Origin: Candidatus Poribacteria bacterium
Lineage (GTDB): Bacteria > Poribacteria > WGA-4E > WGA-3G
Length of the DNA stretch: 64,000 nt
Assembly: GCA_965261435.1 (NCBI GenBank)
Contig: CBDHDL010000021.1
Span: 142,872 to 206,871, forward strand
Direction of reading: 5' to 3'
The position numbers and the translations under genes are program-made. Positions 12,806 to 64,000 of this stretch are shown here, one piece after another (the first letter of the stretch is position 1; every line of letters starts with the position of its first letter). The notes under the pieces were generated by a model. The model made no database searches. It was not told the origin of the DNA and was given only the letters and a program-made list of their open reading frames with translations.

Positions 12806-13007
12806 TTATTAGGGACGAGATGTTTATTTTTCTATGCCGTTCCTACGGAACTCAAGAAAGGGGTGATAACGTTTTTCTATAAACATTTCGTCCCAAATGA
12901 AGTTAAAAAAAATAAGTCAGGTAATTGGGCGAGGTTAGGAAGAAATCAACGGTATGAATGCCATTTAGGCATTCCCCGCCTCGCCAGCAGAGTGGGGGTA
13001 ACTGCCT

Positions 13008-26760: not shown

Positions 26761-26762
26761 TC

Positions 26763-28637: not shown

Positions 28638-30434
28638 TTATAGGTATGATCCACCTTTGCTAACTCTAACTTCGGGTTTTCTGCGCGTTTCGGGTTCATT
28701 AATTAATGCTCGAATATTGACTATTTTTTCACCTTTTCTACCAGAAATCTTAGCCCAATCATCTGGGTTAGTTGTATTGGGAAGATCTTCATTTTCACGG
28801 TATTCTTCACGTATAGCAGTCTTTAGGTCATTTAAAGAGATACCTTTTTCCCTACCTTCAGAACTGATTAGGCGTTTAATTGCCATCTTCTTTGCCCGTG
28901 AAACTATGTTTCTAATCATCGCGCCACTAACAAAATCTTTGAAGAATAACGTTTCACGTTCGCCTCGTGTGTAGGTAACCTCAATAAATCGGTTATCATC
29001 TCTGGTTGCATACATTTCATCAGCAGCTTCAGAAATAAGGTGTTTGACAACATCTTCAGCATTACCGTCAAATTTTTCCCGTACTGCATCTGCAAGCGGT
29101 AGGTCAGGTGTAAGATAGATTCCAAATATATCTTTTGCGCCGTCAATGTTAGGACGATCAATCTTAATTTTAATGTCAAGCCTGCCGGGTCTTAATACAG
29201 CAGGGTCAAGAAGATCTTGCCTATTACTTGCTCCAATGACAATCACATCACGTAAGTTCTCAACGCCATCTATCTCAGCAAGGAATTGCGGCACTAAAGT
29301 TGACTCCATATCCGAGGATATTCCCATACCACGTGAACGAAATAACGAATCCATTTCATCAAAGAATATGACAACAGGAAATCCTTCTCTTGACTTATCC
29401 CGTGCTTTTTGAAATACTTCTCGAATTTTTCTTTCAGTTTCACCAACATACTTATTCAAAAGCTCAGGACCTTTAATGTTGATAAAATAGCCTCTAATGT
29501 CTTCCCTACCCGATTTTTGTCTGATGCGTTCTGCGAGACAATTTGCAACTGCCCTTGCGATCAGAGTCTTTCCACAACCTGGTGGGCCATAGAGCAATAC
29601 ACCTTTTGGGGGTGTGAGGTCAAATTCTTTATATTCTTCAGGGTATAGATAGGGCATTTCTATTGCGTCTCGAATCGCCTCAATCTGCGTGTCCAATCCA
29701 CCTATGTCAGCATAACTTATATCAGGTACTTCTTCGAGCAGTAAATCATCAAGTTCGCGCTTTGGAAGTTTCTCAAGAAGCATCCCGCTGCTATGATTCA
29801 ACAGAACGGTATCCCCTGTTTTTAGTGTTTCTTCTTTTAATGCGGATGAAACACGCACGACCTGTTCTTCATCGGTTCTCAGGCTTACAACAGCGCGTCC
29901 AGATTCAAGTACCTCCTTGATCTTTACCACATCTCCATGTTTTTCAGGAGGTTTAACTGCGACAACGTTCAGTCCACTATTAACGATTACTTCTTGCCCT
30001 ACATCAATCTGATCAGCTTTAATAGTTGGATCAAGATTAACTCTCCATTTCTTTCCACCGATGTCTACATCAATGGTATTATCATCATTAGTACCGAGAA
30101 AGATTCCGTAATTATTCGGAGGTGCACTGAGTTGTTTCACTTTCTCTTTTAATAGCTCAAGTTTCTCTCTTGCTTCTTGAAGTGTCCCGGTGAGTTTTCG
30201 ATTGCGTCTGTGTGCTTGCATTAATTCGCGTGTCATTTCATACAGGCGCGCATCAACATCTTCATCTGGTGAACTTCTGAGTTGTCTTCTTAGATCTGAG
30301 ACCTCGTTTTGAAGCATCTCAATTTGCCAATTTAGTTCTCGAACCATTTGAGGATAATCGATATTATCAGTTTCGATACCTTCAATATCGGAACTTTTCA
30401 ATAAGTCAGATGAAGTGTCTCTTTTAGTTGCCAT
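28638..30434 (-). CDS. arc: proteasome-associated AAA+ ATPase ARC/Mpa
   Basis: N-terminal coiled coil; Walker A GPPGCGKTLIARAVAN; Walker B VIFFDEMD; C-terminus ...GGSYL resembles the Mpa GQYL docking tail. Confidence 0.85.
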   Translation of the reverse strand: MATKRDTSSDLLKSSDIEGIETDNIDYPQMVRELNWQIEMLQNEVSDLRRQLRSSPDEDVDARLYEMTRELMQAHRRNRKLTGTLQEAREKLELLKEKVKQLSAPPNNYGIFLGTNDDNTIDVDIGGKKWRVNLDPTIKADQIDVGQEVIVNSGLNVVAVKPPEKHGDVVKIKEVLESGRAVVSLRTDEEQVVRVSSALKEETLKTGDTVLLNHSSGMLLEKLPKRELDDLLLEEVPDISYADIGGLDTQIEAIRDAIEMPYLYPEEYKEFDLTPPKGVLLYGPPGCGKTLIARAVANCLAERIRQKSGREDIRGYFINIKGPELLNKYVGETERKIREVFQKARDKSREGFPVVIFFDEMDSLFRSRGMGISSDMESTLVPQFLAEIDGVENLRDVIVIGASNRQDLLDPAVLRPGRLDIKIKIDRPNIDGAKDIFGIYLTPDLPLADAVREKFDGNAEDVVKHLISEAADEMYATRDDNRFIEVTYTRGERETLFFKDFVSGAMIRNIVSRAKKMAIKRLISSEGREKGISLNDLKTAIREEYRENEDLPNTTNPDDWAKISGRKGEKIVNIRALINEPETRRKPEVRVSKGGSYL

Positions 30435-30482
30435 ACAAAAAGTTCTCTCTTTCCATTGAAAAGATTGATGATAGGGTAAAAA

Positions 30483-30511
30483 AAGGTTGGATTTTTACGA
30501 TTCCAACCTTA
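30483..30511 (-). terminator. rho-independent terminator downstream of recA
   Basis: On the minus strand, the AAGGTTGGA-atcgtaaaaa-TCCAACCTT hairpin is followed by TTTTTTT. Confidence 0.55.
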
Positions 30512-30563
30512 GCACGTATAAGTATAGCATGTTGAAATATTTACTTCAAGAAAAACAAGCGTG

Positions 30564-34240: not shown

Positions 34241-34940
34241 AATAAGCCCAAAATATTATAGTTGTAAATTAGCAAAAATTGTCTTATTATAACTGTAATA
34301 CGATTTATGGTAGTGTGAGCGTTCACACTATATTGATTCTTAGCAAGTGCTACTTTTTAGGTGTGTCTTTTATCTAAAACTGTACCATCAAAAATGATAT
34401 GTCCGTTGTGGGTTTGATTCAGGTGCGGTTTAACACTTTCCCAGACACAACGGGGTAGTAAACGATCACTCTATATGCGTCAATTTAGTGAATTTCCCAG
34501 GCCGGTAGGTGCGATTTCCTAATCGCGCTGGATCCTTCGCGAAAACCTTTATGAACGCAATTCGCACAAAGCCGGTTCGGTTAGGAAACCGAACCTACCG
34601 ACCTGAAATTTATAGCGGGATTCTCCTTAAAGTGACGCTTACGGGGTGGTAAACGATCACCCGCAAAATAACGATTAATTTGATCATGACTGAACTGTTC
34701 ACAGTGATCCGTAAAATTGATTATAGCATAGTTGACAAGTGTAGTTAGTAGATATTGACAATAATTTACTGTTTTGTCAATACTTAACTAAAAATAAACG
34801 GAGATACTCCATCATAAGAGATTGTTTGAGATTGCTATTAAGTATTATATTAACCCAAGTCGCCGCCTTGTAGCATAATCTGTTAGATTGTGCCTGTGAG
34901 GGTGCAATCTAACAGTTTACGCTACGATATATTATGAAAA

Positions 34941-37900
34941 ATGGATTATTTTCTATTTAAGGAATTATTAATGTCTCATAGAAAATATGGAAGATGGTAT
35001 GTAACATTTTTACTTTTGTGTGTTTTTGTCCTCTATTCTATAAGTTATGCGGATGTGACTCCTGTTGCTGACCGCACGCCACAAGTGCGTGATGCGATTG
35101 TTGCTGCAGTACCGGGTGTGGATTCTGCAGCCGATGTGACTGCGGAGCATCTGTCAACGATGACGAGTCTTACCCTGCGTTTGTTAAAGATAACGTCGTT
35201 GGCATCAGGTGATTTTTCTGGGTTAACAGGTATGACTTCTCTGAACCTCTACGGGAACCAGCTCTCCAGTTTACCTGCTGGTATTTTTGAAGGGTTGACA
35301 TCTTTGACAACACTACGTTTAGGGAGAAACGCTGTGGATCCTCTCCCTTTGACTGTATCATTAGAAAAGGTTGCCGAAGGTGAGTTCAAGGCGGTTGTCC
35401 CTGCAGGAGCGACGTTTGATATTGTTTTACCGATCACTGTTGCAAATGGCAGTATCACGGGTGGTACGACAGCACTCACAATTTCTCAGGGTGGCACAGA
35501 GAGTAGCCTGTTTGAGGTAACACGCACCCCTGGTACAACAGGTGAAGTCACCGTTGATATTGGTACATTACCGAGTTTGCCTCGTAATCATTATGGTTAC
35601 GAACTTGTCAAATCCGATGCACTTCTCCTGACTATCATCGGTGGCATAAACACGGCACCTACTTTTGCTGAAGGCAATATCACTATACGTACCATTGCAG
35701 AAAATGTCTCGGTAGGCACGAACATCGGTGCGCCGATAACAGCCACGGATGTAGAGGATGACACACTGACTTGGACCCTCGGTGGCGTTGATGCCGATTC
35801 CTTTGAGATAAATAGTACAACAGGGCAGCTTAAGACCAAAGCACCGCTTGACTATGAAACCAAGCGTGTCTATTCGGTGTCCCTCACAGTTGCTGATGAA
35901 GAGCTATCCGATACGATAACGGTAATTATCAGCGTGATTGACGTAAGTGATACTGTTGTCGCTGCGGATGTTTTTCCTGTCGTTGACCGCACGCCACAAG
36001 TGCGTGATGCAATCGTGGCGGCGATCCCCACTGTGCGTGATGCAACCCAAGTAACCGCCACACACCTCGCAAGTATAACAAGTCTGAACCTGCGTAGCAA
36101 AGGTATTTCTGCACTGAAAATAGGTGATTTTTCTGGACTTGTCGCACTTACAAATCTCAATCTATTTGGGAATCAACTTTCCAGTCTACCCGTAGGCACT
36201 TTTGATGGTTTGGGGGCACTCACTACGCTCCGATTAGGTGGCAACGTTGTTGACCCACTCCCGTTGATCGTGTCTTTACAACAGGTCCGTGATAGCGAAT
36301 ATCGTGCGATAATACCTACTGGCGCGCCTTTCCCGATCCGCCTCCCGATTACCGTCACTGATAGTAGTATTAGCGGTGGGATAACATCTGTTGTGATCTC
36401 ACAAGGTAGGCGTCATAGTGCCCCATTTACCGTAGTCGGCACCTCCGCAAAAGTGTCTATCGGCATGTTGCCCGGAGTGCCGCGTAACCATTACGGGTAT
36501 GTGCTTGCACAATCCACCGTCAGCAGCCGCACCGAACAAGTGGCAACTGCGATTGCTGCTGCGATAGGTGTTAGCGATAGTCGTTCTGTGACCGAGATAG
36601 ACCTTGCTACGATAACAAGTCTCGATCTCTCAGGAACTTCTCTTACGACGCTCAAAACAGGCGATTTTGCGGATATGGTATCGTTGACAACACTCAACTT
36701 GTCAAACAATGCACTGACGTACCTACCGGCTGACATCTTTGATGACACACCGTCGCTGCGTTCCATTACTTTAGCCAATAACCAGCTTTCAAGTCTCCCT
36801 GTTGGATTGTTCACGGGGTTGTCGTTTCTGAGCACGGTTGACCTCAGTGGCAACGGCATCACAAGCTTATCAGATGGAACATTCAGTGAGTTATCTACGT
36901 TGACAACCCTCAATTTGTCCAACAACAAGATGTCTACGTTACCAGCTGGCATTTTTGAGGGGTTGACATCGTTGAATCAACTCTCATTAAGTGGGAATAC
37001 AGTGGATCCGTTGCAGATAGGTGTATCACTCCAGAAGGTAGGAATAAATCAGTTTAAAGCAGTCGCTCTCACAGGTGCGCCGTTTAATATCGTGTTGCCA
37101 CTCGAACGGATAAATGGCACGGTTCGCGGCGTGGCAACAACCATTCAGATACCGAAAGGCAGTGTGGAAAGCCAACCCTTGACAATGATCCGGATGCCCA
37201 ACACTATTGCAGCAGTTGAAGTAGATATAGTCAATGTGCCGCAGCTCCCCTCAAATCATAACGGGTACGCGCTTGTGAAATCTATGACTCGGCGGTTAGA
37301 AGTACTCCCGATCTTGAACTCGCCACCCGTGTTCACTGAAGGCACAAGCACGACTCGCAATATCGCAGAGAATACCGCAGCAGGCACAAACATCGGTGAT
37401 CCTGTTTCAGCGACAGATGTTGATGAAGACACGTTAACCTACCGGATCGGTGGTACAGATGCAGCCGCTTTCGCTATTGATACATCCTCCGGACAACTGC
37501 GAACAAGTGCAATCTTAGACTATGAAAACAAGAACTCTTATTCTATCACCGTCTCGGTTTCTGATGGCAATGGTGGAAGTGATAGCATTACCGTCACTAT
37601 CACTGTGACGGATGTTAGTGAAACTAAGATAACACCTGCGATTAGTGACCGCACACCACAGGTACGTGATGCCATCGTTGCTGCAGCCAGTGTTTCCTCC
37701 GCTGCTGATGTGAACGCAGCGCACCTCACAGCGATCAGAACTCTGGACCTTTTAGACCACTCCATCAGTTCCTTGAAAGCAGGTGATTTCAGTGGACTTA
37801 CCTCACTGATATGGATCGATCTGTCTTCCAATTCCATAAGTGATATATCTGCCCTTGAGGACTTGACTTCACTTGAAACGCTCCGTCTGTATGACAATTC

Positions 37901-39038
37901 CATAAGTGATATATCTGTCCTTTCAGGGTTGACTTCATTGACAACACTCAATCTGTCTGGTAATTCCATAGGTGATATATCTGCACTTTCAGGATTGACT
38001 TCACTGACAACGCTCAATCTGTCTATCAATTCCATAAGTGATATATCTGCACTTTCAGGGTTGACTTCACTGACAAGGCTCGGTCTCAGGGGTAATTCCA
38101 TTTCAGATTACGGACCGCTGCGCAGGCTACTCGCAGCAATTGAGGCAGCTGGTAATAGTTTATCACTTGATACTACTATCCCGCTTGTCGGAAACAACAA
38201 CGATGCCCCCATATTCACAGATGGCACCAGCACGACACGTTCTATCGTTGAAAATACTGGATCTGGTGTCAATATCGGTCCTGCGGTATCAGCAACCGAT
38301 GCGGATAACGATACACTCACATATACGCTCATTGGTACGGATGCGTCATCATTTAGCATTGTCAGTTCATCAGGACAGCTCCAAACAAAAGCATCCCTTG
38401 ACTATGAAAACAAAAACTCTTATTCTGTCACCATCTCTGTCTCTGATAGCAACGGTGGGACAGATAGCATTACCGTCACTATCAATGTTACGGATGTGAG
38501 TGAAACGACAATAACACTTGTCAGTGAACGAACATCACAGGTACGCGATGCTATTGTCGCCGCACTCCGTGGTGTTTCCTCCGCGGCGGATGTGACCGCA
38601 GCACACCTCACAACAATTACATCTTTGGACCTTTCAGACCAATCCATCAGTTCATTGAAACCAGGTGATTTCAGTGGACTTTCTTCACTGACAACGCTCC
38701 GTCTGTATGACAATTCCATAAGTGATATATCTGCACTTTCAGGGTTGACTTCACTGACAACGCTCAATCTGTCTGGCAATTCCATAAGTGACATATCTGC
38801 ACTTTCAGGGTTGACTTCACTGACAAGGCTCAATCTGTCTATCAATTCCATAAATGATATATCTGTCCTTTCAGGGTTGACTTCACTGACAAGGCTCAAT
38901 CTGTCTATCAATTCCATAAGTGATATATCTGCACTTTCAGGGTTGACTTCACTGACAAGGCTCGGTCTCAGGGGTAATTCCATTTCAGATTACGGACCGC
39001 TGCGCAGGCTACTCGCAGCACTTGAGGCAAGCTGGTAA
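34941..39038 (+). CDS. giant surface protein, segment 1 (signal peptide, Ig/cadherin-like repeats, LRR modules); open frame ends at a +1 frameshift
   Basis: Signal-like N-terminus. Repeated module RTPQVRDAIVAA...AADVTAAHL followed by LRRs (NSISDISALSGLTSLTTLNL). Cadherin-like repeats (LDYE.K..YS.TV.VSDG...D.ITVTI.VTDV). It stops at 39036 where ...LEAAGNSLSLDTTIP of every other module reads gcaAgctggtaa, with an extra A at about 39029. Confidence 0.7.
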   Translation: MDYFLFKELLMSHRKYGRWYVTFLLLCVFVLYSISYADVTPVADRTPQVRDAIVAAVPGVDSAADVTAEHLSTMTSLTLRLLKITSLASGDFSGLTGMTSLNLYGNQLSSLPAGIFEGLTSLTTLRLGRNAVDPLPLTVSLEKVAEGEFKAVVPAGATFDIVLPITVANGSITGGTTALTISQGGTESSLFEVTRTPGTTGEVTVDIGTLPSLPRNHYGYELVKSDALLLTIIGGINTAPTFAEGNITIRTIAENVSVGTNIGAPITATDVEDDTLTWTLGGVDADSFEINSTTGQLKTKAPLDYETKRVYSVSLTVADEELSDTITVIISVIDVSDTVVAADVFPVVDRTPQVRDAIVAAIPTVRDATQVTATHLASITSLNLRSKGISALKIGDFSGLVALTNLNLFGNQLSSLPVGTFDGLGALTTLRLGGNVVDPLPLIVSLQQVRDSEYRAIIPTGAPFPIRLPITVTDSSISGGITSVVISQGRRHSAPFTVVGTSAKVSIGMLPGVPRNHYGYVLAQSTVSSRTEQVATAIAAAIGVSDSRSVTEIDLATITSLDLSGTSLTTLKTGDFADMVSLTTLNLSNNALTYLPADIFDDTPSLRSITLANNQLSSLPVGLFTGLSFLSTVDLSGNGITSLSDGTFSELSTLTTLNLSNNKMSTLPAGIFEGLTSLNQLSLSGNTVDPLQIGVSLQKVGINQFKAVALTGAPFNIVLPLERINGTVRGVATTIQIPKGSVESQPLTMIRMPNTIAAVEVDIVNVPQLPSNHNGYALVKSMTRRLEVLPILNSPPVFTEGTSTTRNIAENTAAGTNIGDPVSATDVDEDTLTYRIGGTDAAAFAIDTSSGQLRTSAILDYENKNSYSITVSVSDGNGGSDSITVTITVTDVSETKITPAISDRTPQVRDAIVAAASVSSAADVNAAHLTAIRTLDLLDHSISSLKAGDFSGLTSLIWIDLSSNSISDISALEDLTSLETLRLYDNSISDISVLSGLTSLTTLNLSGNSIGDISALSGLTSLTTLNLSINSISDISALSGLTSLTRLGLRGNSISDYGPLRRLLAAIEAAGNSLSLDTTIPLVGNNNDAPIFTDGTSTTRSIVENTGSGVNIGPAVSATDADNDTLTYTLIGTDASSFSIVSSSGQLQTKASLDYENKNSYSVTISVSDSNGGTDSITVTINVTDVSETTITLVSERTSQVRDAIVAALRGVSSAADVTAAHLTTITSLDLSDQSISSLKPGDFSGLSSLTTLRLYDNSISDISALSGLTSLTTLNLSGNSISDISALSGLTSLTRLNLSINSINDISVLSGLTSLTRLNLSINSISDISALSGLTSLTRLGLRGNSISDYGPLRRLLAALEASW

Positions 39039-40986
39039 TAGTTTATCACTTGATACTACTATCCCACCTGTCCGCAGCAACAACAATGCCCCCGTATTCA
39101 CAGATGGCACGAGCACAACACGCTCTGTCGCGGAAAACAGTGGTTCTGGTGTCAATATCGGTTCTGTGGTATCAGCAACCGATGCGGATAACGATACACT
39201 TACATATACGCTCATTGGCACAGATGCGTCATCATTTAGCATTATCAGTTCATCAGGACAGCTCCAAACAAAAGCATCCCTTGACTATGAAAACAAAAAC
39301 TCTTATACAGTCACAGTGTCAGTTTCTGATGGCAACGGTGGGACAGATAGCATTACCGTCACTATCAATGTTACGGATGTTAGTGAAACGACGATAACAC
39401 TCGTCAGTGAAAGAACATCACAGGTGCGCGATGCTATTGTCGCCGCACTCCATGGTGTTTCCTCCGCGGCGGATGTGACCGCAGCACACCTCACAGCGAT
39501 TACATCTTTGGACCTTTCAGACCAATCCATCAGTTCATTGAAACCAGGTGATTTCAGTGAACTTACCTCACTGACAACGCTCAATCTGTCTTACAATTCC
39601 ATAGGTGATATATCTGCACTTGAGGACTTGACTTCACTGACAACGCTCAATCTGGCTGGCAATTCCATAAGTGATATATCTATCCTTTCAGGGTTAACTT
39701 CACTGACAAGGCTTAATCTGTCTATCAATTCCATAAGTGATATATCTGCCCTTGAGAACTTGACTTCACTGACAAGGCTCAATCTATCTGACAATTCCAT
39801 AAGTGATATATCTGCCCTTGAGAACTTGACTTCACTGACAAGGCTCGGTCTCAGGGGTAATTCCATTTCAGATTACGGACCGTTGCGCAGGCTCCTCGCA
39901 GCACTTGAGGCAGCTGGTAATAGTTTATCACTTGATACTACTATCCCGTCTGTCCGTAGCAACAACAATGCACCCGTATTCACAGATGGCACGAGTACAA
40001 CGCGCCACATCCCAGAAAACAGTGGTTCTGGTGTTAACATCGGTTCTGCGGTCTCAGCAACCGATGCGGATAACGATACACTCACATATACGCTCATTGG
40101 CACAGATGCGTCATCATTTAGCGTTGTCAGTTCATCAGGACAGCTCCAAACAAAAGCATCCCTTGACTATGAAAACAAAAACTCATATACAGTCACAGTG
40201 TCAGTTTCTGATGGAAAGAGTGGAACCGATAGCATTACCGTCACTATCAATGTTACGGATGTTAGTGATACGCCGCTAACATCTGACAGTGAGCGAACAC
40301 CGCAAGTGCGTGATGCCATCGTTGCTGCAGCCGGTGTAGCATCTGCGACTGATGTGACCACAACACACCTTGCAACGATTACATCTTTAGACCTTTCAAA
40401 CCTATCCATCGGTTCCTTGAAAGCAGGTGATTTCAGTGGACTTACCTCACTGACATGGCTCGATTTGTCTGACAATTCCATAAGTGATATATCTGCACTT
40501 GAGGACTTGACTTCACTTGAAACGCTCCATCTGTATGACAATTCCATAAGTGATATATCTGCACTCTCAGGGTTGACTTCACTGACAACGCTCAATCTGG
40601 CTGACAATTCCATAAGTGATATATCTGCGCTTGAGGACTTGACTTCACTGACAAAGCTCGGTCTCAGGGGTAATTCCATTTCAGATTACGGACCGTTGCG
40701 CAGGCTCCTCGCAGCACTTGAGGCAACTGGTAATAGTTTATCACTTGATACTACTATCCCGCCTGTCCGTAGCAACAACAATGCACCCGTATTCACAGAT
40801 GGCACGAGCACAACGCGTTTTGTCGTGGAGAACACTGGTTCTGGTGTTAACATCGGTTCTGCGGTATCAGCAACCGATGCGGATAACGATACACTTGCAT
40901 ATACGCTCATTGGCACGGATGCGTCCTCGTTTAGCATTGTCGGTTCATCCGGGCAGCTTGCTAACAAAAGCAACTTTGGATTATGA
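39022..40986 (+). CDS. same giant gene, segment 2 (cadherin-like plus LRR modules); ends at a second +1 frameshift
   Basis: Continues the about 880-bp module periodicity. The first residues of the ORF call are out of frame. It ends at 40986 where gggcagctTgctaac (extra T at about 40959) replaces the gggcagctgctaac of the following units. Confidence 0.65.
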   Translation: MRQAGNSLSLDTTIPPVRSNNNAPVFTDGTSTTRSVAENSGSGVNIGSVVSATDADNDTLTYTLIGTDASSFSIISSSGQLQTKASLDYENKNSYTVTVSVSDGNGGTDSITVTINVTDVSETTITLVSERTSQVRDAIVAALHGVSSAADVTAAHLTAITSLDLSDQSISSLKPGDFSELTSLTTLNLSYNSIGDISALEDLTSLTTLNLAGNSISDISILSGLTSLTRLNLSINSISDISALENLTSLTRLNLSDNSISDISALENLTSLTRLGLRGNSISDYGPLRRLLAALEAAGNSLSLDTTIPSVRSNNNAPVFTDGTSTTRHIPENSGSGVNIGSAVSATDADNDTLTYTLIGTDASSFSVVSSSGQLQTKASLDYENKNSYTVTVSVSDGKSGTDSITVTINVTDVSDTPLTSDSERTPQVRDAIVAAAGVASATDVTTTHLATITSLDLSNLSIGSLKAGDFSGLTSLTWLDLSDNSISDISALEDLTSLETLHLYDNSISDISALSGLTSLTTLNLADNSISDISALEDLTSLTKLGLRGNSISDYGPLRRLLAALEATGNSLSLDTTIPPVRSNNNAPVFTDGTSTTRFVVENTGSGVNIGSAVSATDADNDTLAYTLIGTDASSFSIVGSSGQLANKSNFGL

Positions 40987-43357
40987 GAAAAAAGTCCAGT
41001 ATTCTGTGACGGTGAAAGTTTCTGATGGAAAACTCACGGACACAATCACGGTTACTATCAATGTGACAGATGTGCAGGAGAACCGAGCCCCGCTATTTAG
41101 TGCTGACACAGCAACACGGTCTGTCGCAGAAAACACTGCTGCTGGACAAAACATCGGGGCTGCAATAACAGCAACAGACTCGGATAACGACAACTTGACC
41201 TATACTCTTGAGGGTACGGATGCGTCCTCGTTTAGCATTGTCAGTTCATCCGGGCAGCTGCTAACAAAAGCAACTTTGGATTATGAGAAAAAAGTCCAGT
41301 ATTCTGTGACGGTGAAAGTTTCTGATGGAAAACTCACGGACACAATCACGGTTACTATCAATGTGACAGATGTGCAGGAGAACCGAGCCCCGCTATTTAG
41401 TGCTGACACAGCAACACGGTCTGTCGCAGAAAACACTGCTGCTGGACAAAACATCGGGGCTGCAATAACAGCAACAGACTCGGATAACGACAACTTGACC
41501 TATACTCTTGAGGGTACGGATGCGTCCTCGTTTAGCATTGTCAGTTCATCCGGGCAGCTGCTAACAAAAGCAACTTTGAATTTTGAAAGCAAAAGCAGCT
41601 ATGAAGTGACGGTGTCTGTTTCTGATGGGAATGGCGGAAGTGATAGTATTACTGTCACTATCAATGTGGCGGATGTGAATGAGAACCAACCTGTATTTAG
41701 TGATGGCGCAAGCACGACGCGGTCTATCGCAGAAAACACTGTCGCAGGTCAAAACATCGGAGACCCAGTATCCGCAACGGATGCGGATACTGGTGATACG
41801 TTAACCTATAGTCTTGGCGGTACGGATGCGTCATCGTTTGATATTATTAGCACATCAGGACAACTTCAAACCAAAGTTGCTTTGGATTATGAGGGGTCGA
41901 AAAATTCCTATACCGTCACCGTGTCTGTCTCTGATGGTAAAGGTGGGACTGATAAGATTACCGTGTCCATCATCGTCACAGATGTAACCGAAACTACTAC
42001 GGCACCTCAGATACAGATTACACCTGTCGGGAAACGGACATCACAGGTGCGTGATGCGATTGTGGCTGACATCTCTGGTGTTTCCTCCGCGGAAGATGTG
42101 ACCGAAGCACACCTCACAACGATCACATCTTTGGACCTTTCAAACCAATCCATCAGTTCCTTGAAAGCAGGTGATTTCAGTGGACTGACTTCGCTGACAC
42201 ACCTCCGTCTGTATAACAATTCCATAAGTGATATATCGGCTCTTTCGGACTTGACTTCACTGACATGGCTCTTTCTGTCTAACAATTCCATAAGTGATAT
42301 ATCGGCTCTTTCAGGGTTGACTAAATTGACAAGGCTCACTCTGTATGACAATTCCGTAAGCGATATATCGGCTCTTTTGGACTTGACTTCACTGACATGG
42401 CTCCATCTGTATGACAATTCTATAAGTGATATATCGGCTCTTTCAGCCTTGACTGAATTGACATGGCTTGAACTGGGGGAGAATTCCATAAGTGATATAT
42501 CGGCTCTTTCAGCCTTGACAGACCTGAGATCGCTCAATCTGTATAACAATACCATAAGTGATATATCGGCTCTCTCGGGCATGACTAAAATGACAGACCT
42601 CTATCTGTCTAAAAATTCCATAAGTGATATATCGGCTCTCTCGGGCATGACTAAAATGACAACGCTCTATCTGTCTAACAATTCCATAAGTGATATATCG
42701 GACCTTGAAGACTTGACTAAATTGACAACGCTCTATCTGTCTAACAATTCCATAAGTGATATATCGGCTCTCTCGGGCATGACTAAAATGACATGGCTCT
42801 TTCTGTCTAACAATTCCATAAGTGATATATCGGACCTTGAAGACTTGACTAAATTGACAACGCTCTATCTGTCTAACAATTCCATAAGTGATATATCTGC
42901 CCTTGAAGACTTGACTAAATTGACATGGCTTCAACTGGATGGCAATTCCATTTCAGATTACGGACCGTTGGGCAGGCTCAAGGCAGCAATTGAAGCAGCC
43001 GGTAATAGTTTATCACTTGACATTACTATCCCAGCAGATGCTCCCTCACATGCCGCTGTTCCTAAGTCAACATCACTTTTACCCAACTTCCCCAACCCGT
43101 TCAACCCGGAAACGTGGATTCCGTATCAGTTAGCCAAACCCTCAGCGGTGACAATAACGATATTTGATGTCCGGGGACGTGTTGTGCGGACGTTGATTTT
43201 AGGCACTCAACCTTCGGGTATCTATAGAAGTCAAAGCAAGGCAGCCCATTGGGATGGTAAAAACGCGTTCGGGGAAAAGGTCGCAGGAGGAATGTATTTC
43301 TATAGGCTTACGGCAGGTGATTTTTCTGCCACACGCAAAATGTTAATTTTGAAGTGA
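40957..43357 (+). CDS. same giant gene, segment 3: cadherin-like repeats, LRR array and T9SS-type C-terminal sorting domain
   Basis: In-frame continuation LLTKATLDYEKKVQYSVTVKVSDG. The C-terminus NFPNPFNPETWIPYQL...VTITIFDVRGRVVRTL...GIYRSQSKAAHWDGKNAFGEKVAGGMYFYRLTAGDFSATRKMLILK matches the T9SS-type CTD. The listed ORF start at 40718 is an out-of-frame artefact. Confidence 0.7.
40981..41580. repeat. perfect 2 x 300-bp tandem duplication (one cadherin-like repeat unit) inside the giant gene
   Basis: 40981..41280 and 41281..41580 appear identical. The antisense ORFs 40981..41193 and 41281..41493 have identical 70-aa translations. Confidence 0.85.
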
Positions 43358-43411
43358 CTTTTGACAAAATGGGCAAATTTGAAATAGAATCAAACAATTA
43401 AAGGAGTTTAT

Positions 43412-45760
43412 GTGAAAACTTTAGGCAATAAATCAAAGAAAATTGGGCAAACCTTGATGATTCTTAGTTTTGCTTTTCTAATGTTAACAACAGTTCCTGT
43501 TATAGCGAATGAATTTGAAATCGGAACACAGTTCGGGATTTCCCGTTTTATTCCTGACAGCGAGGATTCTTCAACGACAAGTATTACCTTCACTCGGTTA
43601 CCAGCAGGAACACTTGTTGATATTGGGACATCTCCAACATCACTGTACGCGACGTTCTTTCTGGGCAAAAAATATGCGGTTGGGTCAGAATTCAGTTTTG
43701 GAGAAATGTCAGTGTCAGATGAGTCTTGGGCCGATGAGGATAACGCAAGCTTAATGACACTTCACCTTGGTGGTCGCGCATCATACTTTTTGTTTAGTCA
43801 TTCAGTATCTTCACCTTACGTATTCGGACAGATGGCTCGCACTATATTTATTGGTGATGCTAATTTCTTTTTTGAAGGTGACAACAACTCATCTCTTGCG
43901 AGTTTGGGGGGCGGTTTAGGGTATCAGTGGCGTATAGGCCCTGCTTTTGTGCTGCGGACAGAAGCACAGTATCAACGCGTGTTTGTTGTAGATGAAGATC
44001 AAAATGCAAATGAGTTCTCATTTATTATTGGCATCGGCACACGGTTCGGAGGCAATAACAACCCAGCAGAGGCAAAACTTGATCTCAATGACACAGAATT
44101 CACGCCTGTCAGTGCAAGAACACCACAGGTACGTGACGCGATTGTTGCTGCGGTGCCGGGTGTGAATAATGCTGATGCTGTGACCGCAGCACACCTCGCG
44201 GAGATTACATCTTTAGACCTTGCAGACCCATCCATCAGTTCCCTAAAAGCAGGTGATTTCAATGGACTTACCTCACTGACAGAACTCTTTCTGACTTCCA
44301 TAAGTGATATATCTGTACTTGAAGATTTGTCTTCACTGACAGAACTCAATTTGTGGAATAATTCCATAAGTGATATATCCGCACTTGAAAACCTAACAGC
44401 ACTGACAGATCTTTTTTTGTCTTCCAATTCCATAAGTGACATATCTGCGCTTGAGAACCTCACAGGACTGACAACGCTCGATCTGTCTTCCAGTACCGTA
44501 AGTGATATATCCGCCATTGAAAACCTAACAGCACTGGAATGGCTCAAGCTGGGTAACAGTTCCATCAGCGATATATCTGCGCTTCAAAACTTGACAGCAC
44601 TGAAAGAACTCTATCTGTCTTCCAGTACCATAAGTAATATATCCACACTTGAAAACCTAACAGCATTGGAATGGCTCGATTTGTCTTCCAATTCCATAAG
44701 TGATATATCTGCCCTTGAAAACATGACAGCACTAACATTTCTCGATCTGTCTTCCAATTCCATAAGTGATATATCCGCACTTGAAAACTTGACAGCACTG
44801 ACAATGCTCAATCTTTATGGTAACAACATCAAGGATATATCTGCGTTTGAGGACATGACTTCACTAACAGATCTCTATCTGAGTCACAATTCCATAAGTG
44901 ATATATCCGCACTTGAAAACTTGACAGCACTGAGAACACTCAATCTGGCTAAGAATTCCGTAAGTGATATATCTGCGCTTGAAAATCTCACAGCACTGAC
45001 AGAGCTCACTCTACCTGAAAGTTCCATAAATGATATATCTGCGCTTGAAAATCTCACAGCACTGACAACGCTCTATCTGGGTAGCAACGATATCAATGAT
45101 ATATCTACGCTTGAAAACTTGACAGCACTGACAGAACTCCATCTGTTTTCCAATTCCATAAGTGATATATCTGCGCTTGAAAACATGACCTTACTGAGAG
45201 AGCTGAATCTGGGGGGTAATTCCATAAGTGATATACCGTCTCTTGAAAACTTGACAGCACTGACAACGCTCTATCTGTGGGATAATTCCATAAGCGATAT
45301 ATCTGTGCTTGAAAACCTGACTTCACTGAGAACACTGAATATATATCGCAACGACATCAAGGATATATCTGGGCTTGAAAACCTGACCTTATTGAAAGAT
45401 CTCTATCTGAGTCACAATTCCATAAGTGATATATCCGCGCTTGAAAACTTGACAGTGCTAACAAGGTTGACTTTGCATCACAATGCTATCAGCGATGTAT
45501 CTGCGCTTGAAAACCTGAATGCACTGAAAATGCTCAAGCTGAGTCACAATTCCATCAAGGATATATCTGCACTTGAAAACCTGATTGCACTGACAGAGCT
45601 CAATCTGGATAATAATTCTATAAGTGATATATCCGCACTTGAAAATTTGACAGCATTGAAAAAGCTTGAACTGCGGAACAATCCGATTTCAGATTACGGA
45701 CCGCTTCGTAGACTCAAAGCAAAAAATCCAGGTATGCAGACTGATATTACTATTCCGTAG
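43412..45760 (+). CDS. paralogous LRR protein with N-terminal signal peptide and outer-membrane beta-barrel-like domain; C-terminal sorting domain lost
   Basis: GTG start 5 nt after AAGGAG. Signal MILSFAFLMLTTVPVIA. About 200-aa region of alternating hydrophobic strands ending ...FSFIIGIGTRFGG (OMP beta-barrel-like). Then the RTPQVRDAIVAAVPGV cap and about 25 LRRs (NSISDISALENLTAL). It ends ...TDITIP-TAG. Confidence 0.7.
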   Translation: MKTLGNKSKKIGQTLMILSFAFLMLTTVPVIANEFEIGTQFGISRFIPDSEDSSTTSITFTRLPAGTLVDIGTSPTSLYATFFLGKKYAVGSEFSFGEMSVSDESWADEDNASLMTLHLGGRASYFLFSHSVSSPYVFGQMARTIFIGDANFFFEGDNNSSLASLGGGLGYQWRIGPAFVLRTEAQYQRVFVVDEDQNANEFSFIIGIGTRFGGNNNPAEAKLDLNDTEFTPVSARTPQVRDAIVAAVPGVNNADAVTAAHLAEITSLDLADPSISSLKAGDFNGLTSLTELFLTSISDISVLEDLSSLTELNLWNNSISDISALENLTALTDLFLSSNSISDISALENLTGLTTLDLSSSTVSDISAIENLTALEWLKLGNSSISDISALQNLTALKELYLSSSTISNISTLENLTALEWLDLSSNSISDISALENMTALTFLDLSSNSISDISALENLTALTMLNLYGNNIKDISAFEDMTSLTDLYLSHNSISDISALENLTALRTLNLAKNSVSDISALENLTALTELTLPESSINDISALENLTALTTLYLGSNDINDISTLENLTALTELHLFSNSISDISALENMTLLRELNLGGNSISDIPSLENLTALTTLYLWDNSISDISVLENLTSLRTLNIYRNDIKDISGLENLTLLKDLYLSHNSISDISALENLTVLTRLTLHHNAISDVSALENLNALKMLKLSHNSIKDISALENLIALTELNLDNNSISDISALENLTALKKLELRNNPISDYGPLRRLKAKNPGMQTDITIP

Positions 45761-45829: not shown

Positions 45830-46138
45830 ACGCTACCAAACGGAAGGTAAAAACCATATATGAAAAAACTAACATTTGTCTTGCACATCTACACGAATTG
45901 GCGTCCCTTCAAAAGTATTTCTCTCAGCGCAGTGTGATTATCATCGCATTGGCGTGGTTGACAGGTGCAGGTCTGGTTGCATGAACTACCATTTTCTGTA
46001 ATGTTCAGTGAACAAGTTGCCGATGAACACGGTGCGGAAACGGATGACATCTTGTTATCAGTGTTCCGTGAACCGACATAATACCATTTCTATAAATTAT
46101 TGTGTCATTAGACTGTTATTATTGTAGTCATTTTTCAG

Positions 46139-46202
46139 GCCACAAACTGAAAGTTTGTGGTACAAAAAAGAGACATTTTCAAGAAGAAATGGTATAAGAT
46201 TG
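46139..46202. repeat. dispersed about 65-bp element with perfect hairpin CCACAAACT-gaa-AGTTTGTGG followed by TACAAAAAAGAGACATTTTCAAGAAGAAATGGTAT
   Basis: Second copy at 63404..63470 (about 85% identity, with compensatory hairpin). The 3' half alone recurs at 16585..16625 (aacattttcaattagaaatggtatta). This copy is about 75 bp upstream of apt. Confidence 0.6.
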
Positions 46203-47495: not shown

Positions 47496-47975
47496 TCCTT
47501 TATACATGATGCACTCAATGACCTATTTGAAAAACAAGAGTATCCGCGTATAGCGGATTAGCCATCAGAAAGAGAGAGCGAAGGACGAGTTGTTGAGTCT
47601 CATGACCGGAAACATTCACCTGGTTGTGTAAAGTTTTTGGCAAAGCATTGATTTTTTGCTTATGTTTGGTTTTGTTTACATAGCACTCCGCTGGAGTGCG
47701 GGCACTTGACATACATTTTTCTATAGACATAATGCTCCGCTGGAGCAAAAAGCGTTCTTGACAGGTAAGAGATATCCTCACGCCAGAGGCGTGATATGTC
47801 TATAGAACTCACAATGTCCAAAACCCCCACTCCAGCGGAGTGCTATGTCTTGGATCGAGCCGATAAGGAAACGCTGCCAAAATATTTACAGACCCGCAAC
47901 TTAGGTTAAAATAGACAAAGACATCTACACATGTTATAATATTTGATTGGAACTGTAGTCAATCTATACCAGAAC

Positions 47976-48325
47976 GTATCTCATAAATCATTTATATGGT
48001 GAGTTTTTTGTTGTTTGTGATGTATAACGGACAGGGAGACCCAGTCCCTACGAACAGAACGGACAGGGAAACCCAGTCCCTACGAACGGAACGGACAGGG
48101 AGACCACGCCCCTACGAACGGAACGGACAGGGAGACCCAGTCCCTACGAACAGAACGGACAGGGAAACCCAGTCCCTACGAACAAACGGACAGGGAGACC
48201 CAGTCCCTACGAACAAACGGACAGGGAAACCCAGTCCCTACGAACAAACGGACAGGGAAACCCAGTCCCTACGAAAAACAGGTGCTGTGATGAGAAATTT
48301 ATGGACAATTAGGTTTATGAGATAC
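47976..48325. repeat. about 350-bp element with 12-13-bp terminal inverted repeats (GTATCTCATAAA ... TTTATGAGATAC) containing the dispersed 110-bp element and a spacerless tandem array; it ends 17 nt before the metH ATG
   Basis: Left end 47976..47987 gtatctcataaa; right end 48314..48325 tttatgagatac. The interior matches 12693..12805. Confidence 0.55.
48026..48278. repeat. tandem array of eight 31-32-nt units AACGGACAGGGA(G/A)ACCCAGTCCCTACGAAC(A/G)(G/A), each containing an imperfect hairpin
   Basis: Units at 48026, 48058, 48090, 48122, 48154, 48186, 48217 and 48248. No spacers. The ORF 47996..48370 is just a translation of this array. Confidence 0.85.
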
Positions 48326-60865: not shown

Positions 60866-61795
60866 CTAATTCTTATTCAACAATACTATTACAAGTATTA
60901 CAAATCCTACTATAAAACCGAAAACACCTGCAAGAAAAGCCCAGAATATGAAACTAATTAATTTTGAAATTGTCTGACTATCTTCATTTGGAATATTATT
61001 TACACCTTCATGGTCATCCGAAATTTCACATTCTTCAATAGAAATCACCATTAATGTAACATCGTCATTGACTAAGCGCAACTCATCGTTACGTGCTTGT
61101 TCAACAAAGTATTCAAATTGTTCTTGTTGTTCTAAATTTGTTAATTTATCAATAATAGGACTTAGCCCTTTTGCTTCGTAGTTTTGTAAAATCCATTTTG
61201 ATAAGGCATCTGTTGCTAAGATAAGAATATCACCAGGGATGATTGTACCATTTTCTTTTCTCGGTGGACCTCCGACAGGATTGTCCTTTGGAAAACTAGC
61301 AAAACTGTCAGGCCTATATGGGAAATCATCTGACTTTTTTAATGGAAAACTGATGCATTTGGAATTCCTTAGATGAAATAGACAACTGTCTCCTATAATT
61401 AAAGCGTCCCATTCACTCCTTTCACGGTTGAATTCAATTCCAATAAAAGTAGAGAGTGCAGATTCATGTTGAGATAGACGATCAACAAGAATATATGACT
61501 TGGATTCTTGGACGATTTTAGATACTAATTCTATCCATTCTTGTTGAATAGGTTTTATCCATTCTTTCCAATTTTTTTCATTCAGTGTCAGGTTTTCATC
61601 TTTTTTGTTACAATAATATTTAACTAAAAGCTCTGCCCATTCTTTTGGAAAGAAAGATAATGTAGCACCATCCGCAACTGCAAAACGACCATTCTCTTCG
61701 TTAAGACCGTAATCGTCTTGACAGTCATCTATGGTTTCCCCTTTTTTATGGGTTTTGAAATGACTAACCTTTAATTTATTCATTAGATAATCCAT
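60866..61795 (-). CDS. PP2C-like protein phosphatase with C-terminal membrane anchor
   Basis: Metal-binding Asp contexts FAVADGAT, IIGDSCLFHL and LILATDALS fit PP2C motif order. The C-terminal hydrophobic helix is FIFWAFLAGVFGFIVGFVILVIVLL. Confidence 0.5.
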   Translation of the reverse strand: MDYLMNKLKVSHFKTHKKGETIDDCQDDYGLNEENGRFAVADGATLSFFPKEWAELLVKYYCNKKDENLTLNEKNWKEWIKPIQQEWIELVSKIVQESKSYILVDRLSQHESALSTFIGIEFNRERSEWDALIIGDSCLFHLRNSKCISFPLKKSDDFPYRPDSFASFPKDNPVGGPPRKENGTIIPGDILILATDALSKWILQNYEAKGLSPIIDKLTNLEQQEQFEYFVEQARNDELRLVNDDVTLMVISIEECEISDDHEGVNNIPNEDSQTISKLISFIFWAFLAGVFGFIVGFVILVIVLLNKN

Positions 61796-61892
61796 TCTTT
61801 ATTCATTATAACACTTATTAAAAAGAACATGAAAAATACGACCATGCAAGGTCTTACAACAAGCCAATAAAACCGGACCAAGACAAACTAAT

Positions 61893-62711
61893 CTATTTAG
61901 TGACTTTTACAAGAGATCCTGGTGAGCCAAATTCAATGATCCGACTGGTCAGAGCTTCATCTGCGTTATACGCGAAGCACCGAGCACCTGGCTGGGGAGC
62001 AAAACCGTGTTCACGGGCACTTGGAAATAAAGATTCAGGTAAAACACTCGAAATACTAAAAAGAAACTCAGCAGATGGATTATCAGAAAACTGTGAGTTA
62101 TCATATTGAAATTCCACTGGGTTGTCAGAATTTGCAATATGGATGTTATAGACTAATACATTTCCATCTGTGGTTTGGAGATTCATTATCGTTCTTGCTG
62201 CATCACCTGCTAAATCTGGATAGGTTGCTTCACCATCTGTGACGTTTATTATCACAGGTGGAAAACTGTCAGGCCAGTCAGCAATCCAATCATTGACAAT
62301 CTTTGAAGCCCTTTCAAATGCTTCATGCATTGGAGTTCCTCCACTTGCGCGAGGGAGTAACCATATTGGCAATTCTACATCTACTTCAACAACGCCGCCT
62401 GCACCATCTGGTATTTTTTTTGTAACTGCCTTTACTTCAATTGGTGAATTATAGACATCATCTATCATTCCTTCCACTACGGTATCAACGTTTTCACCAT
62501 AACTAATCACACTTACAAAGCATCGCGGTCTATACTCCGGACCTACTTGACACTTTAAAGCAAGATTAAAAATTGCACGATTGACTATTAATGTAGCTTG
62601 TTCTAATTTCAATCCAGTTTGCCAATCTTCATTCATAGACCACGACTGATCTACTAAAATAACAATACAACCTGGATTTGATGTTCCTATAGGGAGATTA
62701 CTATAAGCCAT
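61893..62711 (-). CDS. vWA domain protein (TerY-like)
   Basis: MIDAS motifs VILVDQSWSM, SGGTPM and NVTDGEAT. 272 aa. First gene of a vWA / phosphatase / kinase triad. Confidence 0.7.
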   Translation of the reverse strand: MAYSNLPIGTSNPGCIVILVDQSWSMNEDWQTGLKLEQATLIVNRAIFNLALKCQVGPEYRPRCFVSVISYGENVDTVVEGMIDDVYNSPIEVKAVTKKIPDGAGGVVEVDVELPIWLLPRASGGTPMHEAFERASKIVNDWIADWPDSFPPVIINVTDGEATYPDLAGDAARTIMNLQTTDGNVLVYNIHIANSDNPVEFQYDNSQFSDNPSAEFLFSISSVLPESLFPSAREHGFAPQPGARCFAYNADEALTSRIIEFGSPGSLVKVTK

Positions 62712-63119
62712 TCAACCCTCCTATTACTATGAATATGTTTAACACAATACCTTCGCCAAAAATGGACAGTTTTTCATAAGCCAATCAACTTTGAAAAACC
62801 ATTCAATGTGCAGGTGGAGCAGAAAACTACTTTTATCCACATCCTGTTTAGAATACACTAAGTTTAGAACCTTTACACCTCAAGACAGTCAAATGTTTGT
62901 TGAAGTATTTACATGATTAAAATGCTTCTGCTAAAACATGAAACTATTCTAATTCATTAAAATCCTTGAACATCACGGATCGTCGGGTGGTATCCAACAC
63001 ATATCCATTCAACGCAAACTTAGATAATTGGCGAAGTTATTGATAAATGTACTACAACTATAACGAGTTGTGTTAGTTAACTATTTGTTTGTATCCTTTT
63101 CACACAGATGGACTTAATG

Positions 63120-63210
63120 TTATAAACATATCGTCCCTACGGGACTGAAGAGAGGGTATTCTACGTTTTTCTATAAACATATCGTCCCTACGGGACTGAA
63201 GAACCTATCT
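63120..63210. repeat. two direct copies of a 35-bp palindrome-containing unit (CTATAAACATATCGTCCCTACGGGACTGAAGAGA) about 50 bp apart
   Basis: The core GTCCCTACGGGAC is a perfect hairpin. The units are separated by only about 15 bp. Confidence 0.8.
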
Positions 63211-63627
63211 TTCATAAGGAAAACACACTGAATATTGGACACATGTGAAAACATGTTGTACAATAAGTTATTTAGCAGAAGTCGTAACTATAATAATGCA
63301 TATATTCATATTATGCAATAACTATTTTTATATGTTGCTTTATGTTTAATATCTTAATATTAACTTTACAATACGAAAAAAATACCGTAGTTATTCTATA
63401 GGACACAAACTGGGAGTTTGTGGTACAAAAAAGAAACATTTTCAATTAGAAAATGTCAATAAGATACCAGTAAACACTGCGGTGAATCTTTCTATGTTTA
63501 TGGTCAATGTGAGTGCGCGTATGGCATTCGTCCAAATCAACGTCAAATACGCGTTTGGTATATGGTGGGTATCGCTCACGCTCTACCTATAAGTGTAAAC
63601 TTAAGGAATTTTCTATGTCAGAAATCC

Positions 63628-63810
63628 TCTCCAGTCCCGTAGGGACGCTATGTTTATAGTTAAACGTTATACAACCCCTCTTTAGTCCCGTAGGGACGAT
63701 ATGTGTAGTAGTTCATCCTGATATAAACATATCGTCCCTACGGGACTGAAGAGAGGTGAGGGTATACATTTTTCTATAAACATATCGTCCCTACGGGACT
63801 GAAGAGAAGA
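63628..63810. repeat. cluster of four more copies of the same unit, two inverted then two direct
   Basis: Inverted copies at about 63629..63660 and 63677..63708; direct copies at 63722..63757 and 63771..63808; the period is 48-53 bp. Confidence 0.8.
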
Positions 63811-64000
63811 CAATCCCAATAACTATAAGGGTTCGAAATGATTCATAGAAACATCAAAATTCTCTTAAATTGACACCTATAGGTTTCGCTTCGCTCTACC
63901 CGACCTACAAGTTAAGTATTGACAGAACACTAATGTGAACCTGAACTGTCGAATTTCCTGATCGCATCATCAATTGCTTTTCTGTATGCAGCTCTGGCTA

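Follow-up and report, generated by a model that had tools for sequence, protein, structure and literature searches.

Short hairpin-bearing repeats of a REP-like family in Poribacteria, their miniature transposon shells and a candidate TnpA-Y1 partner

Repeat units and transposon shells at 63 kb

A short repeat, termed U below, was analysed in a 64,000-nucleotide stretch of Candidatus Poribacteria DNA (contig CBDHDL010000021.1), here called the window. Coordinates given without a locus name are those of the window; L001 to L118 are stretches or contigs fetched for comparison with it. The motif GTCCCTACGGGAC is present in six exact copies spanning 63133-63799, with 0.00 expected from shuffles: at 63133, 63184, 63734 and 63787 on the plus strand, and at 63634 and 63685 on the minus strand. 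An initial sequence-only reading of the region had counted six units, four direct and two inverted, in under 700 bp, and this count stands. The even packing that it gave, with about 15 bp between units, does not. Sequence reading and a repeat finder both give three direct doublets: A (63121-63202; +,+), B (63628-63709; -,-) and C (63722-63805; +,+). Units are 51-53 nt apart from start to start within a doublet, and A is separated from B by about 430 nt. Doublets A and B also form 94-nt inverted arms (81% complementary). Doublets B and C together make a (-,-,+,+) quad.

Unit A1 (63121..63151, + strand; nhmmer E ~1e-13) consists of the box TATAAACAT, the bases ATC, the hairpin GTCCC-TAC-GGGAC and the tail TGAAGA. 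Unit A2 (63172..63202, +) lies 51 nt past A1 and completes doublet A. Doublet B includes an outer inverted unit, B1 (63628..63658, -), and an inner inverted unit, B2 (63679..63709, -), whose box is degenerate (TACACATAT). Doublet C includes an inner direct unit, C1 (63722..63752, +), and an outer direct unit, C2 (63775..63805, +). A2 to C2 were found by the repeat finder and nhmmer. A degenerate (-,+,+) remnant is located at 12810..12894 (+): an inverted fragment TAGGGACGAGATGTTTAT, a variant unit with GTTCCTACGGAAC and a truncated unit TATAAACATTTCGTCCC. The variant hairpin with a preserved stem that had been reported is thus real, but its position is 12839-12851 and not 12848-12862. Variant units of this kind (stem GTTCC/GGAAC, tail TCAAGA) are found again in many loci.

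The 63-kb repeat region is non-coding: it holds no open reading frame (ORF) above 48 aa, as the first reading had assumed. No tRNA or tmRNA is found there, and no Rfam family reaches its gathering score. The Rfam matches at E < 1 are microRNA-precursor models alone; they mirror the long hairpin described below, and the best reaches 35 bits where the gathering score is 110. The window sequence has no T-run 3′ of the U hairpin. Sites of the cyanobacterial marker HIP1 (GCGATCGC) in the window: 0. A hammerhead reading of ACTGAAGAG, made by eye, was rejected, since neither stem I nor the cleavage triplet is as it should be and Rfam is empty.

U is a REP-like element (REP, repetitive extragenic palindromic). 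A (C)TATAAACAT box comes first, followed after ~3 variable bases by a hairpin (stem of 5 bp, loop of 3 nt) and then by a TRAAGA tail. The unit is 31-35 nt long, its conserved portion is TTCTATAAACATATCGTCCCTACGGGACTRAAGA, and it holds a 13-nt palindrome (GTCCC-TAC-GGGAC). REPs are imperfect palindromes of 20-40 nt that can fold into a stem-loop, typically with more than 100 copies in a genome; for such an element the U stem is unusually short and weak. Covariation was analysed in units chosen by the 5′ box and the 3′ tail only, the stem being ignored. A perfect 5-bp stem was found in 155 of 177 distinct segments chosen in this way. Nine further perfectly complementary stems occur, e.g. GTTCC/GGAAC, GCCCC/GGGGC, GCTCC/GGAGC, GCACC/GGTGC and ACTCC/GGAGT. 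Among 89 distinct units, 96.2% of cells are paired and both sides change in 4 of the 5 pairs. Double-change cells number 22, against 2.8 +/- 1.5 in shuffled data; none of 500 shuffles is as high, and slid registers collapse. The U stem is selected for complementarity, which bears out the earlier view of the compensatory change as structural selection.

U belongs to neither the GTAG nor the CGTC superfamily of REPs. REPs of the GTAG superfamily have an unpaired GT[AG]G at the 5′ foot of the stem (Di Nocera 2013, PMC3733652; Nunvar 2010, PMC2817692). In U, the complementary strand has its GTAG across loop and 3′ arm (AGTCCC-GTA-GGGAC), not at the foot. In REPs of the CGTC superfamily an unpaired CGTC precedes a stem of 8-9 bp with a loop of 4-5 nt, and the tail is CCA-like (Di Nocera 2013). 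CGTC is present in U, but its GTC lies inside the 5-bp stem, and the lengths of stem, loop and tail differ; this assignment was rejected. The GTAG foot is a feature of the metH-type units and of the L042 REPs (see the last section).

Doublet A lies within a miniature transposon, termed P-type (63063..63285, +). The element is 223 nt long and has terminal inverted repeats (TIRs) of about 45 nt (ACGAGTTGTGTTAGTTAACT... / ...AGTTATTTAGCAGAAGTCGT), as defined by alignment with 7 related copies. The TIR and target site duplication (TSD) census gave a 7-bp duplication, AACTATA, on its left (63056..63062) and a perfect match to it on its right (63286..63292). The census includes 16 distinct P-type elements, which carry 0, 1, 2 or 4 U units; in about 11 of the 16 the two copies of the 7-bp duplication agree exactly or at 6/7 positions. 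A good outward sigma-70-like promoter, TTGGAC-18-TACAAT, lies in the P-type right arm (63235-63265; L070 1785-1815). In L070 an 820-aa secreted protein probably starts ~40 nt downstream of this promoter; the window copy is not followed by an ORF.

The (-,-,+,+) quad is enclosed by a second miniature transposon, termed T-type (63589..63880, 288-292 nt). Its ends, defined by end alignment, are (AT)AAGTGTAAACTTAAG and CTTAAATTGACACCT(AT), with 15-17 nt of inverted sequence. It is flanked by direct repeats: GGGTATCGCTCACGCTCTACCT on the left (63567..63588, +), itself REP-like, and AGGTTTCGCTTCGCTCTACCC on the right (63881..63901, +). These two flanks are diverged (~16/21 identical). The element folds as one long hairpin (DNA, -70 kcal/mol; z = -13). 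Alignment of 32 quads with their flanks gave conserved inverted ends, (AT)AGGYGTCAAYTTAAG, outside the units and ~21-nt direct repeats further out. The direct flanks are at least 16/20 identical in 23 of 34 elements, against 3.4% of mismatched pairs. An empty and a filled site were also found: GYGTTAAACGGACATTATACC is single in L039 and is present in two copies around the element in L078. L026 has an element where the orthologous intergenic region of the window (28546-28639, 93 nt) is without one. P-type and T-type elements both show the features of transposable elements of the miniature inverted-repeat kind (MITEs), i.e. TIRs, TSDs, absence of coding capacity and multiple copies; for the T-type, the duplication is given by the family statistic and the empty site.

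The target duplication of T-type elements is ~21-22 bp and is often a palindromic, REP-like sequence, GGT..N15..ACC; T-type elements of this family are found in L004, L022, L028, L040, L041, L055, L064, L068, L078, L096 and L100. No transposon family with a ~21-22-bp duplication was found among the families compared. Members of the insertion sequence (IS) family IS1202 have duplications of 27-28, 15-17 or 5-6 bp and ends that start with TGT (bioRxiv 10.1101/2022.12.17.520857). T-type TIRs do not start with TGT, and an origin from IS1202 was therefore rejected; IS1202 is a precedent for long duplications only. No autonomous P-type or T-type partner was found among the examined loci. Two candidates were discarded: a pair of T-boxes 4.8 kb apart in L001, which encloses ordinary genes, and ten ORFs beside lone T-boxes, which are ordinary genes or have no Pfam match.

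Both T-box ends are at fixed distances in about half of the mixed-orientation U clusters. Many T-box shells carry other cargo. The one at 34475-34640 has no U: it carries a pair of inverted GTAG-type hairpins, GTAGGTGCGATTTCCTAATCGCGC with its partner, and its flank is a 20-nt direct repeat, GGGGTRGTAAACGATCAC..., itself palindromic.

Distribution of U and a bracketed Y1 gene

An exact 24-mer of U occurs in more than 107 8-kb stretches from at least 30 assemblies of a species-representative genome collection. All 24-mer matches listed are metagenome-assembled genomes (MAGs) of Candidatus Poribacteria. The units are thus found well outside the window. No literature linking Poribacteria to REP, MITE or IS200 repeats was found in the literature searched. 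The window itself is related to another Poribacteria contig, L026, with 78-79% identity over 25145-30558.

The arrangement of units was examined in the window and 107 loci, which include 338 cores at no more than 2 mismatches. Adjacent units share an orientation (++ or --) at 49-53 nt, or are arranged -+, mostly at 49 or 35 nt. No +- neighbours occur within 150 nt, and a cluster has at most one switch of orientation. The (-,-,+,+) quad is the commonest cluster (32 copies), followed by doublets and singles. The clusters are extragenic: 8 of 149 lie inside ORFs of at least 120 aa, though such ORFs make up 77% of the DNA. The flanking gene pairs (tandem, 64; convergent, 21; divergent, 19) show no preference. 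Orthologous intergenic regions are polymorphic for the presence or absence of elements.

Of the REP/BIME-like label given at first (BIME, bacterial interspersed mosaic element), the part that is kept is the extragenic palindromic repeat family. A BIME, in which regularly spaced REPs with defined linkers alternate in orientation, was rejected: units on one side are direct, orientation does not alternate and +- is never seen. A CRISPR array (a cluster of short palindromic repeats, all direct, regularly interspaced with unique spacers of about 25-40 nt and usually accompanied by cas genes and a leader) was also rejected, as it had been from the start. The orientations are mixed, the spacers are 16-19 nt long and recur in other copies, each side has no more than two units, and there is no leader or cas context.

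A tblastn search of the fetched loci gave an IS200-like ORF of 157 aa in L070, exactly between a (-,-) doublet and three (+) units. With the flanks of its homologues read as well, 10 of 10 contexts show a Y1 ORF (155-158 aa) that has inverted units on its upstream side and direct units on its downstream side: L070, L108, L109, L110, L112, L113, L114, L116, L117 and L118. Four of these contigs (L114, L116, L117, L118) are without a Poribacteria label. The box (C)TATAAAYAT is kept across all 10 tnpA contexts; stems and loops vary by lineage. Stems flanking tnpA, per lineage: GTCCC, GTTCC, GCTCC, GCCCC, GCACC, ACCCC, ACTCC. The layout of a REPtron, i.e. a Y1 gene between inverted repeats, is therefore found in all ten related and unrelated MAG contexts and not in the window. 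No Y1 or tnpA homologue was detected in the window by tblastn with queries from the Escherichia coli RAYT (REP-associated tyrosine transposase), IS200 and IS608, and with the L070 and L042 proteins.

The L070 protein matches Pfam Y1_Tnp (104 bits) and NCBIfam transpos_IS200 (88 bits; cut-off 55). It scores 32.9 bits with NCBIfam REP_Tyr_transpos (cut-off 80) and is not a RAYT by this measure. The partner of RAYT type that had been proposed is thus present in relatives as a bracketed Y1 gene, but it is not a strict RAYT. The closest solved structures are ISDra2 TnpA and IS608 TnpA; no match to the E. coli RAYT at E < 0.01 was found in the PDB. The motifs were read in P0001, P0011, P0015, P0030, P0083 and P0119. 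The HUH motif PDHIHI, WQ and the Tyr motif YI[KR]NQE.HH are intact (RH for HH in P0001). The tyrosine motif is Y---Q--HH and not the Y---NP of RAYTs.

Subclass 1.2 of the TnpA-Y1 proteins is defined by DH[IV]H, WQ, Y---Q--HH, a length of ~150 aa and a specific C-terminal domain (Quentin et al. 2018, PMC6006769). By its motifs the Y1 protein whose gene U units bracket matches this signature. Its length and a conserved C-terminal extension agree as well. According to the same study, subclass 1.2 is related to IS200 transposases, yet is low-copy and not IS-like; it is found mainly in Cyanobacteria and Bacteroidetes, generally without terminal hairpins. Clusters of the Y1 proteins found here are mostly recorded on 1-3 contigs, which is suggestive of low copy number, as far as contig records can tell. 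The tnpA gene adjoins carA in L117 and L118; this would suit a gene that stays in place rather than one that hops, and the low mobility reported for the subclass. Unlike published members of subclass 1.2, the genes found here are bracketed in 10 of 10 cases by box and hairpin units, and these units are dispersed genome-wide in Poribacteria.

The tnpA unit of L109 (2790-3590) is bounded by 36-nt TIRs of its own (TTTATTTSCTTGGGTRTTTCTT...TGTGTAG). Half a U unit stands on either side of it (…AGTCCCGTAGGG / CCCTACGGGACT…), as though the inner boxes of a quad had been replaced by the tnpA unit. Its right side runs on as the right half of a T-type element.

Origin of the units

The six units at 63 kb are probably non-autonomous copies of the REP-like repeat U, whose likely cognate enzyme is a TnpA-Y1 of subclass 1.2, and which were delivered as cargo of the two shells. 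This account is held with fair, not full, confidence. The copies are regarded as non-autonomous because the window has no transposase gene. TnpA 1.2 would recognise the small hairpin and the flanking box on single-stranded DNA, by analogy with IS608 and ISDra2 TnpA and with the TnpA-REP of E. coli. Cutting and rejoining at U would then create and maintain arrays of units. The (-,-,+,+) quads may have arisen from the tnpA-bracketed arrangement by loss of the gene: the same layout surrounds tnpA in 10 of 10 contexts, so a quad would be that structure minus the gene. Binding and cutting of U by TnpA 1.2 are put forward by analogy with the known enzymes, and the origin of quads by tnpA loss as a proposal. 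The window clusters lie inside two TIR-bounded shells and were for this reason most probably delivered by shell transposition. The six copies would have arrived with the shells, moved by the shells' own transposases. As these shells have TIRs and TSDs, the immediate spread of the window copies need not involve the Y1 enzyme.

REP-like repeats associated with a Y1 enzyme are a known kind of system. REPtrons, in which REPs or REPINs (two inverted REPs with a short spacer, which make one hairpin and replicate together) are associated with a RAYT (TnpA-REP), are described in E. coli and Pseudomonas (Nunvar 2010, PMC2817692; Bertels & Rainey 2011, PMC3116915). As in REPtrons, U is a short extragenic palindromic repeat whose units are inverted on both sides of a single Y1/HUH gene, and its stems co-vary with the enzyme lineage. 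As in REPINs, gene-less inverted pairs of U form long hairpins; the 32 recurrent quads lie mostly inside T-box shells with target duplications. Unlike the repeats of REPtrons, U has a stem of just 5 bp and its best-conserved part is the unpaired 5′ box; the canonical place holds no GT[AG]G foot, and direct doublets with a 51-nt period are found on each side. The enzyme linked to it is without the Y---NP of RAYTs and falls under the NCBIfam RAYT cut-off.

Other systems were compared. The atypical REPtrons of subclass 2.6 and class 3 also have flanking repeats without a GT[AG]G foot, weakly structured and dispersed, which needed manual detection (PMC6006769). Their proteins are of other classes (subclass 2.6 has Y---NP; class 3 repeats have a CnGA foot), and their repeats have no evident similarity to U. 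The IS200/IS605 elements IS608 and ISDra2 are the closest by structure and by hidden Markov model; they use small subterminal hairpins on single-stranded DNA, without TIRs or TSDs. In IS200/IS605 elements, the two end hairpins share a strand and it is the entire IS that is multicopy, whereas the flanks of the U-linked gene are inverted and the short repeats are dispersed. The P-type and T-type shells resemble bacterial MITEs in their TIRs, target duplications, many copies and lack of coding capacity; the T-type differs from IS1202 in its ~21-bp duplication and in its ends.

Several points weigh against the proposed enzyme–repeat partnership. The association between TnpA 1.2 and U is positional, being read from gene and repeat order, and the published table gives no REP association for subclass 1.2 (PMC6006769). 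The tnpA neighbourhoods are mostly non-syntenic among the Poribacteria contexts, so the gene unit may itself move; in one direct comparison, between the tnpA neighbours of L070 and L109, no homology of flanking proteins was found. The window copies show clear marks of mobilisation by other machinery, of TIR/TSD type. Taken alone, the U hairpin has little stability (-4.2 kcal/mol as DNA; z = -1.2), and U is without the GT[AG]G foot of classical REPs. The symmetric stem changes are those also expected of a palindromic site of a dimeric protein that binds double-stranded DNA; for this reason, hairpin formation itself is proposed conditionally.

That U is a passive internal sequence of P-type and T-type MITEs, found near the Y1 gene through insertions beside it, is unlikely but deserves attention. 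Both window clusters are inside TIR-bounded shells with target duplications, T-box ends accompany about half of the mixed-orientation clusters, a P-type right arm continues after the (+) units beside tnpA in L070, and a T-type element abuts tnpA in L110. Against it, T-box shells with very different cargo exist (34475-34640) and many have no U. Units free of any shell flank tnpA in L108, L112-L114 and L116-L118, contigs without a Poribacteria label included; in those contigs the stems have diverged while box and polarity are kept. Also against it, the polarity (-)n gene (+)n is the same in 10 of 10 contexts.

A role as host-selected functional sites (e.g. sites bound by a regulatory or nucleoid protein, or hairpins that stabilise or terminate RNA) is improbable. 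It would suit the identity of the 24-mer in at least 30 species-level genomes, the fixed spacing of 51 nt (about five helical turns), the kept symmetry of the stem and the binding of IHF, gyrase and Pol I by classical REPs and BIMEs (PMC2817692). It does not suit the unbiased orientation of the flanking genes, the lack of a T-run after the hairpin, the 33 units interrupted by small elements with no apparent loss, or the orthologous intergenic regions that differ in element presence. Almost no credence is due to the reading of the cluster as a ribozyme, as a small RNA with a structure, or as a degenerate array of CRISPR type. The quad is indeed a very stable long hairpin, and the sub-threshold microRNA-precursor matches reflect that hairpin only; no Rfam family reaches its gathering score, the orientations are mixed, the spacers are 16-19 nt and leader and cas context are absent.

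The account preferred here remains that of a REP-like repeat with a probable TnpA 1.2 partner, carried into the window by shells. Of the domesticated transposases that keep up a population of tiny repeats, the best-known example is the REP/RAYT system. What would be new is, from sequence comparison, a partner of subclass 1.2, previously without a DNA partner. Also new are the unit itself (unpaired conserved box and 5-bp stem, no GTAG foot, direct doublets on each side) and its nesting in two MITE shells, one with a ~21-bp duplication. The subclass had been described without an associated DNA element, so its role had been open. A conserved and easily synthesised 31-nt candidate substrate makes this role directly testable on single-stranded DNA. 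A broader proposal is made more tentatively, at somewhat less than even confidence. U may be the missing substrate of the orphan subclass 1.2. REPtrons would then include a third kind besides the GTAG and CGTC types, and its conservation would extend far outside Poribacteria. Two MITEs, one of which duplicates ~21 bp of often palindromic target, would have captured U in Poribacteria, where it would form, with a loop-targeting element (K, below), a nested ecosystem of hairpin-seeking elements. For the Poribacteria, sponge symbionts that are not in culture, the U family is in addition a lineage-specific marker. At least 6 small mobile elements, nested in one another, make up the mosaic of their intergenic DNA, a point of consequence when MAGs are assembled and annotated and strains are typed.

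Other repeats and genes of the window

The metH-upstream array (48024..48275, +) includes 8 tandem GTAG-type REPs of 31-32 nt; on the minus strand a unit reads GTAG + GGACWGGG-TCT-CCCTGTCC. The identity of metH is given by a Pfam match. Singletons of the metH type are located at 12398-12426 and 12759-12787. The core GTCCCTACG had been said to end every unit of this array and two singletons. It is present in 7 of 8 array units, the unit near 48108 reading GCCCCTACG, and in the two singletons at 12416 and 12777, not at 12429 and 12788. In metH units, GTCCCTACG serves as the 3′ arm of an 8-bp hairpin (GGACAGGG/CCCWGTCC) plus CTAC as a tail, whereas the 63-kb units use it as 5′ arm and loop of the 5-bp hairpin. 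That this 9-mer is common to U and metH units by chance is unlikely. It may reflect common descent or a shared CTAC/GTAG recognition element. The metH-type unit is a classical GTAG-type REP, and its family is separate from U. The metH-type REP pattern is absent from the 109 loci examined. The single superfamily once thought to dominate intergenic space is not supported: U occupies two loci in the 64-kb window, the metH-type family is separate, and at least 4 other unrelated small repeat families occur in the same intergenic regions as U.

L042 encodes a RAYT-like ORF of 256 aa with NHYH and YIHYNP motifs, similar to TnpA-Y1 subclass 2.8. The gene is flanked by 2 + 2 inverted GTAG REPs (GTAGTAGGGCAATTCATTGCCCG), a canonical REPtron in a poribacterium (6778-7695). 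These REPs have the same ...CCCTAC(TAC)GAACA tail as the metH-type units, which for this reason plausibly belong to a canonical RAYT system.

The metH-type units lie inside a larger repeat (12690-12800 and 47970-48290; also 12208-12218). A 60-nt leader (GAACGTATCTCATAAATCATTTATATGGTGAGTTTTTTGTTGTTTGTGATGT) and an end in common (CTACGAAAAACAGGTGCT) mark this repeat, of which one copy holds 1 unit and the other 8, a variation of the kind seen in variable-number tandem repeats.

The K element is a 34-nt hairpin (CAAATCAACGCCAAATGCGCGTTTGGCATTTGTC) that splits U exactly between GTCCCTAC and GGGAC, in 33 cases, without target duplication. Examples: L070 1676-1740; L078; L048 5271-6288. A related sequence, CAAATCAACGTCAAATACGCGTTTGGTAT, is found at 63528-63556. 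A second element of K type is often nested in the loop of the first. K insertion looks aimed at hairpin loops, and the split units hint that the loop is accessible as single-stranded DNA.

Another small family is found at 63387-63465, 46081-46195 and 16517-16631. It has inverted ends ATACCATTTCT / AGAAATGGTAT and the core CACAAACTGNNAGTTTGTGGTACAAAAAAGAAACATTTTCAA; the 63.4-kb copy is without the left end. The spacer at 62.9-63.9 kb is wholly a mosaic of repeats. Adjoining this spacer (60866-62711, -) are neighbouring genes for a vWA-like protein and for a phosphatase that weakly resembles PP2C and carries a membrane anchor at its C-terminus; the Pfam match of each is under the gathering cut-off. 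Exact look-ups of the window's vWA protein and of protein P0009 found neither on record. Most of the repeated DNA of the window is of another kind: long coding repeats, with units of ~0.5-1 kb that recur many times, at 35000-45700.

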